From an uncultured Blastocatellia bacterium (GTDB lineage Bacteria; Acidobacteriota; Blastocatellia; HR10): 64,000 nt of DNA. The first letter of the stretch is position 1, and each line of letters opens with the position of its first letter. The notes under the pieces are model-generated. The model was given only the letters and a program-made list of their open reading frames with translations. It searched no databases and was not told the DNA's origin. The position numbers and the translations under genes were made by a program. Where the stretch lies: contig CALHAI010000013.1 in assembly GCA_937934295.1 (NCBI GenBank), positions 5,865 to 69,864 of the forward strand, given 5' to 3'. Below are positions 57,244-63,988 of the stretch, in pieces.

Positions 57244-57825
57244 ATGGCATACGCGGCGAAGAACTACGAACACCTGTTGGGCATGGATGGGTTCAGCGAT
57301 CAACTCTTGAGGAATCATTTCGCCTTGTATCAAGGCTACGTGATCAACACGAACAAGCTGGTTGAGGCGCTCCGTGAGCTGGAGAAAACCGGAAAGGCGG
57401 GGACACTCGAATATGCGGAATTGAAGCGGCGCTTCGGCTGGGAATTTAACGGCATGCGGCTTCATGAGTTGTATTTCGATAACTTGACCCGAACGCCGGA
57501 GCCGCTTGAGGCGAATGCTCCCCTGGCGCGATTGATTCGCGAGCAATACGGATCGTTCGAAGCGTGGCGAGACGATTTCAAAGCGGCTGGGACCATGCGC
57601 GGGATCGGATGGGTCGTGCTCTATCACGATCCGGTCTCCGGTCGGCTCTTCAACGTGTGGATCAACGAGCATGATCTTGGCCATCTGGCCGGATGCACAC
57701 CGCTTCTCATCATGGATGTCTTCGAGCACGCCTATATGCTCGATTATGGGCTGAGGAAGGCGGACTACATCGAGGCGTTCGTCCAAAACATCAACTGGGA
57801 GGTCGTGGCGGCGCGCTTGAAGTGA
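57244..57825 (+). CDS. Fe/Mn superoxide dismutase family protein
   Basis: C-terminal DVFEHAYMLDY (D...H ligands) and GIGWVVL. The N-terminal HH.KHH motif is degenerate (RNHFALYQGYV). Confidence 0.65.
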   Translation: MAYAAKNYEHLLGMDGFSDQLLRNHFALYQGYVINTNKLVEALRELEKTGKAGTLEYAELKRRFGWEFNGMRLHELYFDNLTRTPEPLEANAPLARLIREQYGSFEAWRDDFKAAGTMRGIGWVVLYHDPVSGRLFNVWINEHDLGHLAGCTPLLIMDVFEHAYMLDYGLRKADYIEAFVQNINWEVVAARLK

Positions 57826-57921
57826 GCGAACGCGCGGCCTGATCGGGGGAGTCAGGAGGGCGACACGGCGAGCGAAGGAACGCGCGTCTCCGCACGAGCG
57901 CGGCAAGGAAGGGATCGCGGA

Positions 57922-58677
57922 TCAGGAGAGCGCGGCCCGCGCCATCTCCTCGGCCGGGATGTCAAAGTTCGCCGAGACGCGCTGCACATCATCGTGCTCT
58001 TCGAGCGCGTCCATGAGCTTCAGCATCAGGGCGGCGTCCTTTCCCTCCAAGCGCACGGAGGATTGTGGGATCATCGTGATCTGAGCTGTGAGCGGCTGAA
58101 TCCCCGCTTGCTTGACCTGCTCCAGGACGCGGTCGAAATCCTCCGGCGCGGTGAGGATCTCGTAATTCCCCTCATCATCTACGCGCACGTCTTCGGCCCC
58201 CGCCTCCAGCGCGAGATCGAAGATCGCGTCCTCGGAGAGGATGCCTTTCTCGACGGCGATATAGCCCTTCTTCTGGAACATCCAGGCGACGCAGCCGCTC
58301 TCGCCCAAGTTCCCACCATATCGGGAGAAGATATGCCGCAACTCGGAGACGGTCCGATTCCGGTTACTCGTGAGCGCTTCGACCAGGACGGCGACGCCGC
58401 CGGGGCCATATCCCTCATAAATCGCCTCCTCGTATTGTTCGCCGGCGATCTTCCCCGTGCCGCGATCAATGGCCCGTTGGATGGTCTCCTGCGGCATATT
58501 ATTGGCCTTCGCTTCGGCGATCGCCTTCCGCAAGCGTGGATTCGCCTCCGGATCCCCGCCACCCAGCCGGGCCGCGACGCTGATCTCACGGATCAGCTTG
58601 CTGAAGAGCTTCCCCCGCTTGGCGTCGGCGGCGAGCTTCTTATGTTTGATTTGGTGCCACTTCGAATGTCCCGACAT
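57922..58677 (-). CDS. yebC: YebC/PmpR family DNA-binding transcriptional regulator
   Basis: [62 protein letters not shown]. Confidence 0.85.
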
Positions 58678-58777
58678 CAGTCCATCCCCTGGTTCGAGGT
58701 CTTCTCGGACGAGGTTCCCTCGTCGGGATTTTTAATCATATCATGGTCTGCAAATGAGCGCCAAGCGCCTCTCTCGG

Positions 58778-58912
58778 CTACTTCGGAGCGAACTTCCGGT
58801 AGAGAGCATAGGCCACGAGAAACGAGATGAGGAAGATCAAAGCCGGCACCACGATCCCCCAGAACACGCTCTGCGGTCGCGCCAGCTCCAAAAGGAGCAC
58901 CCCTTCAGGCAT
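58778..58912 (-). CDS. small single-TM protein (44 aa), not in the ORF track
   Basis: MPEGVLLLELARPQSVFWGIVVPALIFLISFLVAYALYRKFAPK. ATG overlaps the TGA of the upstream small gene (ATGCCTGA). Confidence 0.35.
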   Translation of the reverse strand: MPEGVLLLELARPQSVFWGIVVPALIFLISFLVAYALYRKFAPK

Positions 58913-59045
58913 GATCTCCCTCCTTCCTCGCCCGGGCGCGTTCGCGTTGTCGTCGGCGATAAGAGATATAAGCGAAGAGCATTCCCAGAGACGAGGCCAC
59001 GTAGGCGATGGAGAGACCGATCAGCACCGAAAGCCCCTCGTTCAT
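58905..59045 (-). CDS. small single-TM protein (46 aa), not in the ORF track
   Basis: MNEGLSVLIGLSIAYVASSLGMLFAYISYRRRQRERARARKEGDHA. GGGAGGAGG RBS. ATG overlaps the transporter TGA (ATGA). Confidence 0.35.
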   Translation of the reverse strand: MNEGLSVLIGLSIAYVASSLGMLFAYISYRRRQRERARARKEGDHA

Positions 59046-60922
59046 CGCACCTCCTCCCAGCGCAGGATCTTATCCAGGTGCTCCAGGTAAGCCTTTTGCT
59101 TCTTCTCATACTCCGCCGAGACGGCCTTGAGCTTCGGGTCAATGATCCAGTGCATGATCGCTGTCAGCAGGATGCCCACGATGAAGACCAACACGCCACC
59201 CTTCGTCTGAAGGAGCACGAGTGCGACGCCGAGCATCAGGGCTATGTACGCGAGCGGAGAGATGAGGATGGTCAGCCAATCCTCGCGCGTCCACTCCTCG
59301 GCTTCTTCGGCCGACCACTCGCGCTTAAGCAGCGAATGGCGCGTCACGTTGCGCGGGGGGATCAAGCCCAAGCGCTCGGCCTCCGCGCGCACAGGCCCCC
59401 ACCAGCCGATGGGGCGCGACATGACGTAGTAGCGCACGAGTTGTCGCATGTCCTCGGGCGGCGTCAGATACGTCACCGGCACATAGACGAGTGCTCCCAA
59501 TCCCATCAGGATCCAGAATTGCAAATAATCAGGCAGGTTCGGGAACACGCCGAAAGCCGGCAGGACCCAGACGATGAGCCAGCTCAGACCCAGATTCGCG
59601 ATCCACGAGATCAAATACCCCCACGCGTTAAAGCGCCACCAGACGACCTGCAAGATGTTAGGCAGCCAGACGCCCGCGGCCATAATCCAAAGGGCGAAGA
59701 TGAGCCATTTCGTGATTTCCTTCATCATCAGGCCATAGAAGAACGAGCCGATGAGTACCAGAAGCGTCGAGATCCGTCCCACCCAAACGAGTTCGCGTTC
59801 GGAGGCCTGCGGCCGGATATAGTGGTGATAGAGGTCGCGCGTCGCATACACGGCACCCAGGTTCAAGTGCGAGGCGATCGTCGAGAGATGAATAGCGACG
59901 ATCGCCGCGAAGAAAAAGCCCAGCATCCCCCCGGGAAGGAATTCCAACCCCAAGCGGTACCACCCCAGTTCGTATTGGGCGCGATCGGGGATGTTCGGAT
60001 AAAGGACGTAGAAGCCCAAAATGGCGACAGCCCAGAGCGCATTCCGCGTGAGCACAAGCATCGTCCCCCACCAAATTGAGTATGCCGCATCGCGAACGGT
60101 TCGAGCCGATTGAATCCGTTGCGCCTCAACATACCAATCAATGGCCGTGCCCATGCCGAACCCCCCGATGATGGCGATCACCAGCATCGTCGCGAACCAC
60201 GCGATGGGAAAATCGCCCGAGAATAGGCCCGTGAACGCGAAGGGATCGGTGCGCCACCCTTCGCCCATTGCCCGAAGCTTCGAGAGGATCCCCTGTGGCC
60301 CCCCAGCCTCGAAGATCCCCCAGAAGGAGACGATCAGAATCGCGATGAAGGCGATGATGCCCTGCTGGAAATCGGCCATGACGACTCCCCAGTATCCGGC
60401 CGCCAGGACGTAGACGGCGCAGACGGTCGAAAACAGCACCAGGCCGACCCAATCCGGCCAGCCGAAGATCAGGTGACAGAGCTTCCCCATCGCGATGCCG
60501 ACCCAACCGAGGATGAACATGTTCATGAAGACCATCCAACCGGCGATCCATCCGCGCAGGAGTTCGCTGCCCAGCCCACTGAAGCGTAAGCTCTGCCATT
60601 CGGCTTGACTATAGGCAAGCGAGCGGCGGAAGATGCGTGCGCTGACGAAGGCGCTGATGGCGCACCAGGCGGAAAAGAATGTGTACCAGAGGCCGCGCAA
60701 GCCGTGCTGGTAGACGATGCCGGTGACCCACATCGGGGTGTCCGTGGCCGTATGCGTCGCATAGACTGAGGTGGCCGGCAGCCACCACGGCAGGCCTCGC
60801 CCGGCCAGGAAGAAATCCGCCTCCGAGCGCTTGCCCAAGCGATAAAAGAGCGCGCCGCATCCTACCATCAACAGCAAGTACACCAGAACCCATACCCAAT
60901 CGAGCGTCGTGAAGCGCACCAT
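59042..60922 (-). CDS. sodium:solute symporter (SSS) family transporter
   Basis: Thirteen or more TM helices. SEADFFLAGRGLPWW matches the SSS N-terminal signature. 626 aa. Confidence 0.7.
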   Translation of the reverse strand: MVRFTTLDWVWVLVYLLLMVGCGALFYRLGKRSEADFFLAGRGLPWWLPATSVYATHTATDTPMWVTGIVYQHGLRGLWYTFFSAWCAISAFVSARIFRRSLAYSQAEWQSLRFSGLGSELLRGWIAGWMVFMNMFILGWVGIAMGKLCHLIFGWPDWVGLVLFSTVCAVYVLAAGYWGVVMADFQQGIIAFIAILIVSFWGIFEAGGPQGILSKLRAMGEGWRTDPFAFTGLFSGDFPIAWFATMLVIAIIGGFGMGTAIDWYVEAQRIQSARTVRDAAYSIWWGTMLVLTRNALWAVAILGFYVLYPNIPDRAQYELGWYRLGLEFLPGGMLGFFFAAIVAIHLSTIASHLNLGAVYATRDLYHHYIRPQASERELVWVGRISTLLVLIGSFFYGLMMKEITKWLIFALWIMAAGVWLPNILQVVWWRFNAWGYLISWIANLGLSWLIVWVLPAFGVFPNLPDYLQFWILMGLGALVYVPVTYLTPPEDMRQLVRYYVMSRPIGWWGPVRAEAERLGLIPPRNVTRHSLLKREWSAEEAEEWTREDWLTILISPLAYIALMLGVALVLLQTKGGVLVFIVGILLTAIMHWIIDPKLKAVSAEYEKKQKAYLEHLDKILRWEEVR

Positions 60923-61129
60923 AGGACTTCATCCCCCCCTCGTTTTCGCCATGAGCATCGCGTGTGCCCTATATCGCCCCAGGCGAAGTCAACTTCGCTT
61001 CGCTCGGGAGCTGAGGCCAAAAACTGAAGCCGTCATTATAGCACTTCGCCCTCAAGGGAAGAAACCCGGTGGCGGCTGGCTTTCCGCTCGCCCCTCCTCG
61101 TACACTGAGAAAGACAAGGAGAGGAACCG

Positions 61130-61648
61130 GTGCCTCGGGCAAGGACTCATGACGCGATCACACTGGCGCTCGCTCCGCCGACGTTTCTGCTCACGCAGGC
61201 GCTCACGGGAAGTCGCGATCTGGCCTGGTTGGTGACGCTCGCGATGCTCTTCTCCGGCTTCCTGTTCAATCCCGATCTGGACATTCGGAGTAAGCCCTAC
61301 GCCCGCTGGGGCCCATTTCGTTTCCTCTGGTGGCCGTATCAAGTACTCGTCCGCCATCGCTCGCAGCTCTCGCATGGACTCTTACTCGGCACATTCATTC
61401 GCACCGTGTATCTCTTGATCATACTCGCCCTTCTCGGCGCAGTGGGAATCCTCCTTTGGCACGCGCTTCAAGAGCAGTCCGGAAGCGAAAGCGCGCGTCA
61501 GGCCCTGGCTTTGCTGAAGCGATGGCTTCTGTCTGTGGAACGCCGATATTGGCTCGCTCTCTTCTTCGGCCTCTGGTGGGGTTCAGCCGCGCATACGTTC
61601 GCTGACTGGCTCGGGAGCCTCTGGACCCAGACCAAACGTCTCCTATGA
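61130..61648 (+). CDS. DUF2227-like putative metal-binding integral membrane protein
   Basis: THDAITLAL...HRSQLSHGLLLGT is a His-rich motif in a 4-TM protein. GTG start behind AAGGAGAGG. Confidence 0.45.
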   Translation: MPRARTHDAITLALAPPTFLLTQALTGSRDLAWLVTLAMLFSGFLFNPDLDIRSKPYARWGPFRFLWWPYQVLVRHRSQLSHGLLLGTFIRTVYLLIILALLGAVGILLWHALQEQSGSESARQALALLKRWLLSVERRYWLALFFGLWWGSAAHTFADWLGSLWTQTKRLL

Positions 61649-61666
61649 GCCGAAAGGGCGGATGGT

Positions 61667-63988
61667 TCAGTTCAGGGCGAGCCGATAAATCACCAACCGC
61701 GAGTCCGCTTTGAGAACCGCCCCCACGAAGACGACACGCCCTCCGATCGCCAGAAGCAGCGGGATAGGCGTCAGCCGCTCTCCTTCCGGCCCAAGCTGCC
61801 GAGCGGCGATGAGCCGTTGGAGCGTCCCCTGCTTCCAGAGATAGAGATTCGGCTCATCGAGCTCGGGACTCAAGAAGACGATCTCCCCCGTCGGAGCCAT
61901 GCTGTGAACTGGCGGAAGCTTGATCGGCACACTCTCGGGCGTCGGATCACCGTCGGCCACCACTTTCACGAGCGATCCGCCTGAGTACAAGAAGAGCGCA
62001 CGCACTTCGCTCCCGCTTGGTTGACTCACCACTCCGATGAAGCTGACAGCCCCTTGAGGATTGATCTGAAGGGAGGAGAAGACCTCCGGCGCGAACGCCC
62101 CGATCTGCAATTCCGAACCGCGGCGGAAAGTTCCCCCAATGGGCGTCGCACCGCCGCTCTCGGCGATCTTCTGGAAGGTATACCCCGTCTGTCGAGGCGT
62201 CGCGAGGACAACCCCCTCCTCGCGCGGTGCGCGCGCGGCGAGGGCGAGTCTCCCATCATCGGCAAGCGCCACATCCATGACGAAGATGGCCTCCGTATTC
62301 CGAATGCGAGGGAGCGAGGTCACATCAATGGTCCGAGAAGGATCAATGCTGTATCTTCCGGTCGTCGGTCGAGCCACCAGCACGAGATTCCGCACGTTCG
62401 CGCCCGTACTCTCGGCGAGGTTCACAACGAACGCGATTTGACCCGCCTCGTTCAAGCTGATGTCGAAGATGTCAACCACAAGCCGACCGAGGACGGCGTC
62501 CCCAGAAGCCACCACCTTTTGGAACGATCCCCCTTGGTGGACGAAAAGCGCCGATCCGTCCTCGATCTCCACCTGGATGGCGATCACTCCCGCATCATTG
62601 ACCGCCGCTTCGGTGACAGAACGAATCTTCATGCCTTCGATCACCTGACCCTGATAGACCACAAGCTCAATGGCTCCCTCTCGAACTCGGAAGAGGTGTC
62701 GGCCTCCGCCCACGTTCCCGATGAAGAATAGATCGCCGTTTCGGCTGGCGATGAGATTCGAGAAGCCAAGGAAGGGACTATCGGAAGGGGCAGACTCGAC
62801 CGGGCCAAGGAGCGTTTCCGAAGACGCCGATCCCGTATGAAGCCGAAGCGAGATGTTCAGTCCGAAGGCAGGTTTGTCGAAGAAACCACTCGGCACCATG
62901 AAGTTCGCGTTCAGGGCGATGGCGATGTGGTCATACACGGCCTGACCTTGGCGGTTGATCGCGTAAGGCGGCAAGTTCTCCTCCGTCTGAGAGGCTCCGG
63001 GAAACTCTTGCGACTGTCGCTGGCTTCCCGCGAAGCGGAGAATCCCTCCGCCGAGGATGGCTCGCGAAGCCGCACCGCAGTAGATCACCCCGCCGTCGCC
63101 GAGTGTCGGCGCTGTGAGAAACTGCACGTTGAAGCCACCGACGTTCTGTCCCGTGCGGATGATCTCCTGAAGACCGCTTCCGACCGTGAAACGATAGAGC
63201 GCGAGGGTCGGATTCTGCTGATTCGGCCGACGAAATGCGCCAATGAAAACGAGATCGCCGCCTGGAGCGAGCGAATTCGGGGAGACGAGGAAAGGCACAG
63301 CGGGGAAGATCGTGTTGACAGGTGGGAGGATGTCCACGAACGTTCCCCCCGAAGTGTTTGGCGCCACATCGCCGATCTTCACGACGCGAATCGCCGAAGC
63401 GCCAGTCTTCACGTAGAGCGCCCGCTCTGCATGATCCAAGAAGGCGATCGCATCCCCTTGTGGGTTCACAGCCTGAAGAGCGAGCGTGACGATGGTCCCC
63501 CCCACGTTGTTCAGATCGCCTTTCCGCACAAGCACCTCATGCGTTCCCTCTGCAGAGCGGAAGATCGCCGCTTCGATGGCCCCTTGCGCCGTGCGTACCA
63601 ACGCCGTGAAGTACGCCTGGCCGTCGCTCGTCAGTCGCGGATTCGAGAAGCTGAGGATCGTTCCGACCGAGGTCGTCGTTCCCGTCTTGAGCACCGTGGC
63701 GATCGTCCCCCTCTCAGCCAAGAACAGCCCGGCACTCGGATATCCCTCCTCGGGCGGTGGTCCCGAAGTCTCTGCCGCAAAGAGTATTTGCCGTCCATCG
63801 TTGAGGGAGAACTCTATAAGACGCGTGAAGACCTCGCCTTCCGGCGTGCGATCCCCAATCTGAACGATCCGCCGTAACTTGCGGGTTATCGCCTCGCGAA
63901 GGAAGATCGCTCCGCGCAGCGTGCCCGACTCTTCGGCGACGGCGAAGGCGACATCCTTCGCTGCATTTATCTGATGCTCACGCAACAC
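61667..63988 (-). CDS. large hypothetical repeat-rich protein, probably extending beyond the window end
   Basis: 773-aa ORF with no signal peptide at the listed M. The reading frame stays open to position 64000. Low-complexity beta-rich repeats (G.I.F...V...GG). Confidence 0.4.
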   Translation of the reverse strand: MLREHQINAAKDVAFAVAEESGTLRGAIFLREAITRKLRRIVQIGDRTPEGEVFTRLIEFSLNDGRQILFAAETSGPPPEEGYPSAGLFLAERGTIATVLKTGTTTSVGTILSFSNPRLTSDGQAYFTALVRTAQGAIEAAIFRSAEGTHEVLVRKGDLNNVGGTIVTLALQAVNPQGDAIAFLDHAERALYVKTGASAIRVVKIGDVAPNTSGGTFVDILPPVNTIFPAVPFLVSPNSLAPGGDLVFIGAFRRPNQQNPTLALYRFTVGSGLQEIIRTGQNVGGFNVQFLTAPTLGDGGVIYCGAASRAILGGGILRFAGSQRQSQEFPGASQTEENLPPYAINRQGQAVYDHIAIALNANFMVPSGFFDKPAFGLNISLRLHTGSASSETLLGPVESAPSDSPFLGFSNLIASRNGDLFFIGNVGGGRHLFRVREGAIELVVYQGQVIEGMKIRSVTEAAVNDAGVIAIQVEIEDGSALFVHQGGSFQKVVASGDAVLGRLVVDIFDISLNEAGQIAFVVNLAESTGANVRNLVLVARPTTGRYSIDPSRTIDVTSLPRIRNTEAIFVMDVALADDGRLALAARAPREEGVVLATPRQTGYTFQKIAESGGATPIGGTFRRGSELQIGAFAPEVFSSLQINPQGAVSFIGVVSQPSGSEVRALFLYSGGSLVKVVADGDPTPESVPIKLPPVHSMAPTGEIVFLSPELDEPNLYLWKQGTLQRLIAARQLGPEGERLTPIPLLLAIGGRVVFVGAVLKADSRLVIYRLALN

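Follow-up and report, generated by a model that had tools for sequence, protein, structure and literature searches.

In E. coli, the gene for the small membrane protein YhdT (DUF997) adjoins an SSS gene, that of the pantothenate symporter PanF (yhdT-panF). Other small membrane proteins found beside SSS transporters include the DUF4212 proteins, which are about 80-90 aa in length with two TM helices, and the DUF485 proteins, which are about 100 aa in length. DUF485/YjcH is co-encoded with ActP-type carboxylate symporters, and has been proposed to be a required component of them. Mutant fitness data indicate that both DUF4212 and DUF485 small proteins are needed by the adjacent SSS transporters; in the DUF4212 case (PF13937/TIGR03647), the small hydrophobic protein stands beside a VC_2705-type large subunit (TIGR03648) (bioRxiv 10.1101/072470). 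The accessory protein MAP17 (PDZK1IP1) consists of one helix, which is bound to TM13 of SGLT2 (PMC10803289). Large membrane transporters of other kinds also have single-pass partners: KdpF, AcrZ, MgtS and CydX, each 30-50 aa in length, bind theirs by one helix face. Subunits and accessory proteins go unmentioned in a 2021 review of prokaryotic SSS transporters, and a literature search for the peptides described below, or for accessory subunits of the transporter family to which they belong, returned nothing specific.

The locus described here lies on the minus strand of the window (the whole stretch of 64,000 nucleotides that was analyzed). An SSS transporter ORF of 626 aa (59042-60922) is followed by two small ORFs, each encoding a predicted single-pass protein: peptide A, of 46 aa (58905..59045), and peptide B, of 44 aa (58778..58912). 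The transporter TGA and the A ATG overlap as ATGA, and the A TGA and the B ATG lie within an 8-nt overlap inside ATGCCTGA. The Shine-Dalgarno motif of A, GGGAGGAGG (59050..59058, minus strand), is located within the codons for the conserved R-W-E-E at the end of the transporter, and that of B, AAGGAGGGAG (58916..58925, minus strand), within the 3' end of gene A, with a spacing from motif to ATG of 4-7 nt for both. Two coupled small single-TM genes 3' of the transporter, possibly for accessory subunits of it, had been proposed in a sequence-only reading of the window; its coordinates and overlaps were reproduced, and the observation is confirmed as real. The description of the two genes as unlisted holds for the 60-aa ORF track used in that reading, but not for the public assembly that contains this contig (ENA ERZ6864471), in which both small ORFs have already been called, without annotation. 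A 441-aa ORF on the opposite strand (58754..60079, plus strand), which covers part of the transporter and the small genes, had been dismissed as an antisense artefact, and rightly so. Its GC1 of 0.78 and GC3 of 0.58 are the mirror image of the values for real genes (GC3 of ~0.80), which identifies it as a shadow frame and not a gene, and the frame opposite to it has protein homologues at E=0; comparable shadow ORFs are present in other high-GC loci. The nearest genomes are Acidobacteriota MAGs, with transporter identities of 93% and 91%.

A scan by transporter alignment, with one genome per species, yielded 80 loci from at least ten phyla. These loci belong to the Acidobacteriota (including Aminicenantes), Gemmatimonadota, Rhodothermales, Ignavibacteriales/Melioribacter, Fidelibacterota, Krumholzibacteriota, Calditrichota, Latescibacteria, Elusimicrobia and Kryptonia. 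When the ORFs 3' of each transporter were listed, the same two peptides were found in the same order. HMMs for A and B, built from 12 seeds each, were run on 82 fetched loci and the window. The A model matched in the window and in 80 of the 82 fetched loci, and the B model in the window and in 78 of them; the two A misses and all four B misses are cut contigs that end at the transporter. Across all informative loci, the E-values range from 1e-9 to 1e-24. Nei-Gojobori counts over 22 closely related pairs gave dN/dS values of 0.02-0.37, and the pooled pN/pS is 0.19 for A and 0.29 for B. The sequence-only reading had named conservation of the peptides downstream of orthologous transporters, and a bias towards synonymous substitution, as the features to look for; both are present, the first in 80 loci and the second at the pooled ratios just given. 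A profile search of a collection of 5.8 billion proteins yielded 1055 A clusters and 807 B clusters; almost all are 28-65 aa in length and either unnamed or labelled "hypothetical". An exhaustive HMMER search for A left 131 representatives at 50% identity. A and B are thus real, widely conserved and selected protein-coding genes, with a specific linkage to a single SGLT-like SSS family and to its C-terminal extension module, hereafter ext (vide infra).

Family scans were conducted with 52 A and 48 B sequences against Pfam and NCBIfam, and with two ext sequences and several fusion proteins against Pfam. No family was significant for A or B in either database, or for ext in Pfam. The matches obtained are at noise level (LapA_dom, PspB, DUF485, sarcolipin and others, all with E > 0.001). 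DUF485/YjcH (PF04341) matched none of the 52 A sequences and neither ext sequence, and reached 7 of the 48 B sequences at sub-threshold values (E >= 0.018). DUF4212 (PF13937/TIGR03647) gave no match at E <= 0.1 for A or B in Pfam or NCBIfam, or for ext, and DUF997/YhdT (PF06196) likewise gave none at E <= 0.1 for A or B. No Pfam match to the MAP17 family was found among the 100 A and B members, and MgtS-like matches are confined to single members at E ~0.03. The sequence-only reading had seen no obvious match of the peptides to DUF485 or DUF4212, and the profile scans agree. One database protein (P0348) carries a JGI automatic label of "DUF485 family", which has no Pfam support and was rejected. 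A and B are therefore families absent from Pfam and NCBIfam.

Both peptides contain one hydrophobic stretch. The A consensus reads M-x-x-G-L-x-V-V-I-G-M-S-I-A-Y-x-A-S-F-L-G-L-x-L-A-(W/Y)-x-x-Y-R-K, followed by a basic segment and then an acidic tail, and its conserved face is a ladder of small residues (G10, A14, S18, G21 and A25) continued by Y29-R-K. The N-terminal segment of B is variable, often R-I-G-x-P. The remainder of B follows the consensus G-(I/V)(I/V)(I/V)-P-x-x-I-F-x-x-S-F-x-x-T-x-L-L-Y-R-H-F-S-(K/R), with S or A at the serine before the final (K/R); P23, L37 and F41 are invariant. The sequence-only reading had placed basic residues on both sides of the hydrophobic core, but most of them lie C-terminal to it: A has Lys+Arg counts of 5.4 (C-side) vs 0.5 (N-side), and B has 3.0 vs 0.5. 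Given the positive-inside rule, this excess predicts an N-out/C-in topology for both peptides, fixed by charge bias. Column conservation in A and in B is most strongly periodic at 95-105 degrees, and the conservation moment at 100 degrees exceeds that of shuffled columns (p=0.014 for A, p=0.0008 for B), which places the conserved residues on one helix face in each peptide. From this pattern we infer helix packing on a fixed partner, as it would not be expected of a generic membrane anchor.

In the great majority of loci, the A start follows the transporter stop at a spacing of -8 to +4 nt, with -4 the commonest value; between the A stop and the B start, the usual spacing is -4, and -8 or -1 nt come next. 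In most of the 80 loci, TGGGAGGA is found 5' of the A start, and GGAGG-like motifs occupy the equivalent place 5' of B. These spacings, together with the embedded Shine-Dalgarno motifs, indicate that coupled translation is conserved across loci and is no peculiarity of the window. A further observation concerns the dual use of coding sequence, which extends to L003-L082 as well as the window: the transporter R-W-E-E codons (TGGGAGGA) double as the Shine-Dalgarno motif of A, and the codons for the acidic tail of A (GAGGAGG) double as that of B. W622 of the transporter is at least 90% conserved, and protein-level conservation at the ends of the transporter and of A may be owed in part to these ribosome-binding sites.

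The transporter matches PF00474 over residues 37-441 with an E-value of 6.8e-26 (91.5 bits vs a cutoff of 22.8). It also matches TIGR00813 at E=1.8e-30, yet falls under the 184-bit cutoff of that model, and it scores 26.4 bits against TIGR03648, where the cutoff is 320.75. An AF2 model of the window transporter (pLDDT 78.7, pTM 0.82) has as its best Foldseek matches human SGLT2-MAP17, SGLT1-MAP17 and vSGLT (E 1e-13 to 1e-11, TM 0.62-0.74), and comparison of the model with SGLT2, SGLT1, vSGLT, SiaT, NIS and SMCT1 gives E-values of 1e-13 to 1e-9. The solved structure nearest in sequence is vSGLT (E=2e-16). Profile, LeuT-type fold and Na2 residues all place the protein in the SSS family (PF00474, TC 2.A.21); its SGLT-like nature was not part of the sequence-only reading.

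The Na2 residues S364/S365 of vSGLT (TM8) align with S347/T348 of the transporter, which are invariant in 69 homologues. Since this site is kept, sodium coupling is plausible on the basis of the alignment. The SGLT-type sugar ligands are largely replaced: vSGLT Q69 corresponds to T62 and E88 to T81, and only S91 is kept, as S84. In addition, TM1 contains the motif A-T-H-T-A-T-D-T-P (A55-THTATDTP-63, ~60734-60760, minus strand), which is invariant in the 69 homologues and occupies the position of the substrate and Na+ ligand region of vSGLT (A62...Q69). This motif appears to be a family signature and may define the substrate site. With the vSGLT sugar ligands replaced and a TM1 motif of its own, the family has a substrate that cannot be read from homology.

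Transporter homologues fall into two length classes, of 626-640 aa and 525-533 aa, and the shorter class is without the last ~95 residues. These residues constitute ext, a component in addition to the two genes of the sequence-only reading. In the window, the transporter core comprises residues 1-528 (59339..60922, minus strand), with ~13 TM helices in an SGLT-like LeuT fold, and ext comprises residues ~529-626 (59045..59338, minus strand). In the AF2 model, ext is folded as a pair of TM helices plus a long helix in the cytoplasm, and the model helices at 546-570 and 574-622 have pLDDT values of 81-94. Elsewhere, ext is a separate gene of 96-98 aa between the core and A, as an overlapping or abutting ORF, in L069 (4601-4891) and L086-L092. 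A separate 96-aa ext gene is typical of Aminicenantes-type loci.

The order of the parts is not fixed. In L079, the gene order is ext-A-B-core, with ext separate. In L024, L033 and L045, the A and B genes sit together immediately 5' of the transporter gene and are transcribed divergently from it, and B is displaced by 0.5-1.1 kb from A in L052 and L059. Two database proteins, P0433 and P0439, are natural fusions in which an extra TM helix joins A to B. In 12 contigs, the gene for P0433 directly follows an SSF gene of 641 aa and overlaps it as ATGA. As A and B are both predicted to be N-out/C-in, joining them requires such an extra helix. The chief reason for thinking that core, ext, A and B act together is that their linkage persists through fission, fusion, permutation and change of strand.

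Several other fusion-like ORFs were detected. Direct in-frame A-B fusions with no intervening helix occur in L012 (3438-3710, plus strand) and P0420. These clash with the predicted topology and were retained as weak evidence only; possible causes are an error in sequencing or assembly, or a topology of B that is more flexible than assumed. Three further candidates were rejected as probable artefacts: P0289 (a frameshifted transporter tail with B), P0385 (an FdhD fragment with A) and P0245 (an alternative start). In L097 (615-1250, plus strand), the A-type helix forms the C-terminal anchor of a ~210-aa protein with a signal peptide and a periplasmic domain; the order in this locus is A(+domain)-B-core, and the core belongs to the same transporter family. 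P0418, P0432 and P0449 are proteins of the same A-anchored type. The L097-type protein has no Pfam family match, and an AF2 model (three sequences, pLDDT 74) most closely resembles PsbP (2xb3, E=7e-7), with DcrB-like proteins also matched. In P0394, P0400 and P0404, an N-terminal A-type helix is fused to a further membrane domain with 3-4 TM helices and no Pfam match.

Taken together, these features suggest that the locus encodes a multi-component SGLT-like Na+/solute symporter composed of core, ext, A and B. In the proposed arrangement, the 13-TM SSS core is fused, in this genome, to the 2-TM ext, and A and B would be made from the transporter's mRNA by translational coupling and inserted N-out/C-in. 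Each peptide would then pack its conserved face on the transporter periphery, on the other peptide, or on both, with a zipper of small G/A/S residues as the face of A and P...F..S..T..LYRHF as that of B. A and B would thus serve as permanent accessory subunits, with 1:1 stoichiometry, that are required for assembly, stability or activity, a role that may be likened to that of MAP17 on SGLT2 or of DUF4212 and DUF485 on other bacterial SSS transporters. Two features expected of accessory subunits are observed directly: A and B co-occur with the transporter in all informative loci, and in most loci they are positioned for co-expression by overlapping or abutting codons. Purifying selection, surviving linkage, fusion and fission, one-face conservation and precedent point in the same direction, and we consider it probable that A and B are permanent subunits packed on the transporter. 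A single-pass helix with one conserved face could equally well have a different partner. The displacement of B in two loci, and the three loci in which the pair is not co-transcribed with the transporter, also indicate that strict stoichiometric coupling is not universal.

These exceptional arrangements are pertinent to the alternative that survives best, in which A and B are not structural subunits but regulatory small membrane proteins that tune or inhibit the transporter or another membrane protein, as SgrT, MgtS, AcrZ and MgrB do. An A-B pair with a divergent transcription unit of its own (L024, L033, L045), or a B gene set apart from A (L052, L059), is what might be expected of a regulator, and the size, single TM helix and one conserved face fit known bacterial small-protein regulators (PMC10710835). 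However, regulators of this kind usually have a narrow distribution and are expressed on their own, under particular conditions, whereas A and B are coupled to transporter translation in most loci of at least ten phyla, and join in fusion and fission with parts of the transporter. A regulatory role seems unlikely, though its probability is not negligible.

It is also conceivable that A and B help with the assembly or membrane insertion of an unusually large 15-TM transporter and are absent from the mature complex. Conservation restricted to one face over the whole TM span, and the stable fusions, suggest a lasting interaction instead, and an assembly helper would be without precedent among SSS transporters. 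Such a role, which co-translation from the transporter mRNA and the position of ext and both peptides as C-terminal add-ons to a standard 13-TM core would accommodate, is in our view improbable.

Genes outside the module are not conserved overall among the loci. Sugar-related genes are found near the module in several lineages, including GH92, GH38 and GH2 mannosidases, GH4, PfkB kinase, PIG-L deacetylase and PGI, with stretches of glycan-related genes in L083 (674-6982 and 9289-13870), L085 (10047-12353), L086 (1-2032) and L089 (6427-9006); GH92 lies within 3 kb of the module (<=3 kb) in 9 of the 80 genome loci. These neighbors provide a hint, and only that, of a mannoside or other sugar as substrate. 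In the window, no mannosidase or other sugar gene is found near the module, where the neighbors are a DUF2227 protein, a 773-aa protein, yebC and superoxide dismutase. The DUF2227 metal-binding membrane protein (61130-61648, plus strand) is divergent from and upstream of the transporter. The 773-aa protein, also upstream (61667-63988, minus strand), has no Pfam match and is 862 aa in the public gene call; it was considered as a homologue of the Tricorn/PD40 protein at the equivalent position in L083, and the two are not related.

On the other side of the module, the next gene after B is yebC (57922-58677), which starts 100 nt further on, behind a sigma-70-like promoter (58735-58764, minus strand) that reads TTGGCG-18-TATGAT with an upstream TG. 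No convincing minus-strand terminator was seen after B, so read-through into yebC is possible. A GC-rich hairpin at 58708-58724 (GACGAGG...CCTCGTC) has a T-run on the plus strand only, and a search of 57800-61800 for Rfam elements gave none at E <= 1.

A variable neighborhood, and peptides with no known domain, would suit a third alternative, namely that A and B do something unconnected with the transporter (for instance as a membrane-active or type I toxin-like peptide) and are simply encoded in the same operon. This proposal is difficult to reconcile with a tie to one transporter family that holds across phyla despite permutations and changes of strand, with strong purifying selection and with a fixed predicted topology. 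Neither an antisense RNA nor an Rfam element was found, and the second SSF gene in L089 is not followed by such peptides; we regard an unrelated function as highly improbable. Finally, the two small ORFs might be supposed, from their shortness and from the frequency of spurious ORFs at 62% GC (the many shadow ORFs among them), to be fortuitous reading frames in the transporter 3' untranslated region. This last alternative is refuted by the conservation data, namely the HMM matches in all informative loci, the pN/pS ratios, the more than 1000 (A) and more than 800 (B) database clusters, and the conserved Shine-Dalgarno and start positions, and its probability is vanishingly small.

Small membrane proteins are routinely missed or labelled "hypothetical". 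Here, two well-defined families, with >1000 and >800 clusters, and a third module accompany a single transporter family in many phyla that have received little study, and the A and B genes deserve names in annotation pipelines. If A and B are true subunits, the transporter expressed alone would probably be inactive or unstable, and the locus would offer a simple bacterial model of how single-helix partners of the MAP17 type support SGLT-type transporters. If the multi-subunit class proposed below is also real, two or three new small-protein families would be defined. No concept would be overturned, because small SSS subunits are already known in other forms.

The described systems differ from this locus in several respects. 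KdpF, AcrZ, MgtS and CydX have unrelated partners (a P-type ATPase, an RND transporter and cytochrome bd among them) and no sequence similarity to A or B. YhdT differs from both peptides in size and predicted topology. DUF485 has two TM helices and is encoded upstream, and DUF4212 genes are likewise upstream of their large subunits (bioRxiv 10.1101/072470), unlike A and B in the window. The closest likeness is to SGLT2-MAP17 and SGLT1-MAP17, in which an SSS/LeuT-fold Na+ symporter is accompanied by a separately encoded single-helix accessory protein at its periphery, an association that is predicted in the present case. Chains from these complexes are the best matches to the model of the window transporter (8hg7_A, E=1e-13, TM 0.63-0.68), although the transporter shares only 16-18% sequence identity with SGLT and does not retain the vSGLT sugar ligands. 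A and B are without sequence relation to MAP17, and the likeness is functional only. With a confidence a little above even, we favor the broader proposal of a new class of multi-subunit SSS symporter, widespread in the Acidobacteriota, Gemmatimonadota, FCB group and allied phyla, in which an SGLT-like 13-TM core would be functional only as a complex with ext, A and B, each of them a small membrane module able to evolve separately, and in which A would tether a PsbP-like periplasmic domain in some lineages. Such a system would be a more elaborate bacterial counterpart of SGLT2-MAP17, operon-encoded and with three add-on modules (the 2-TM ext, A and B, which together contribute four extra helices) in place of one.
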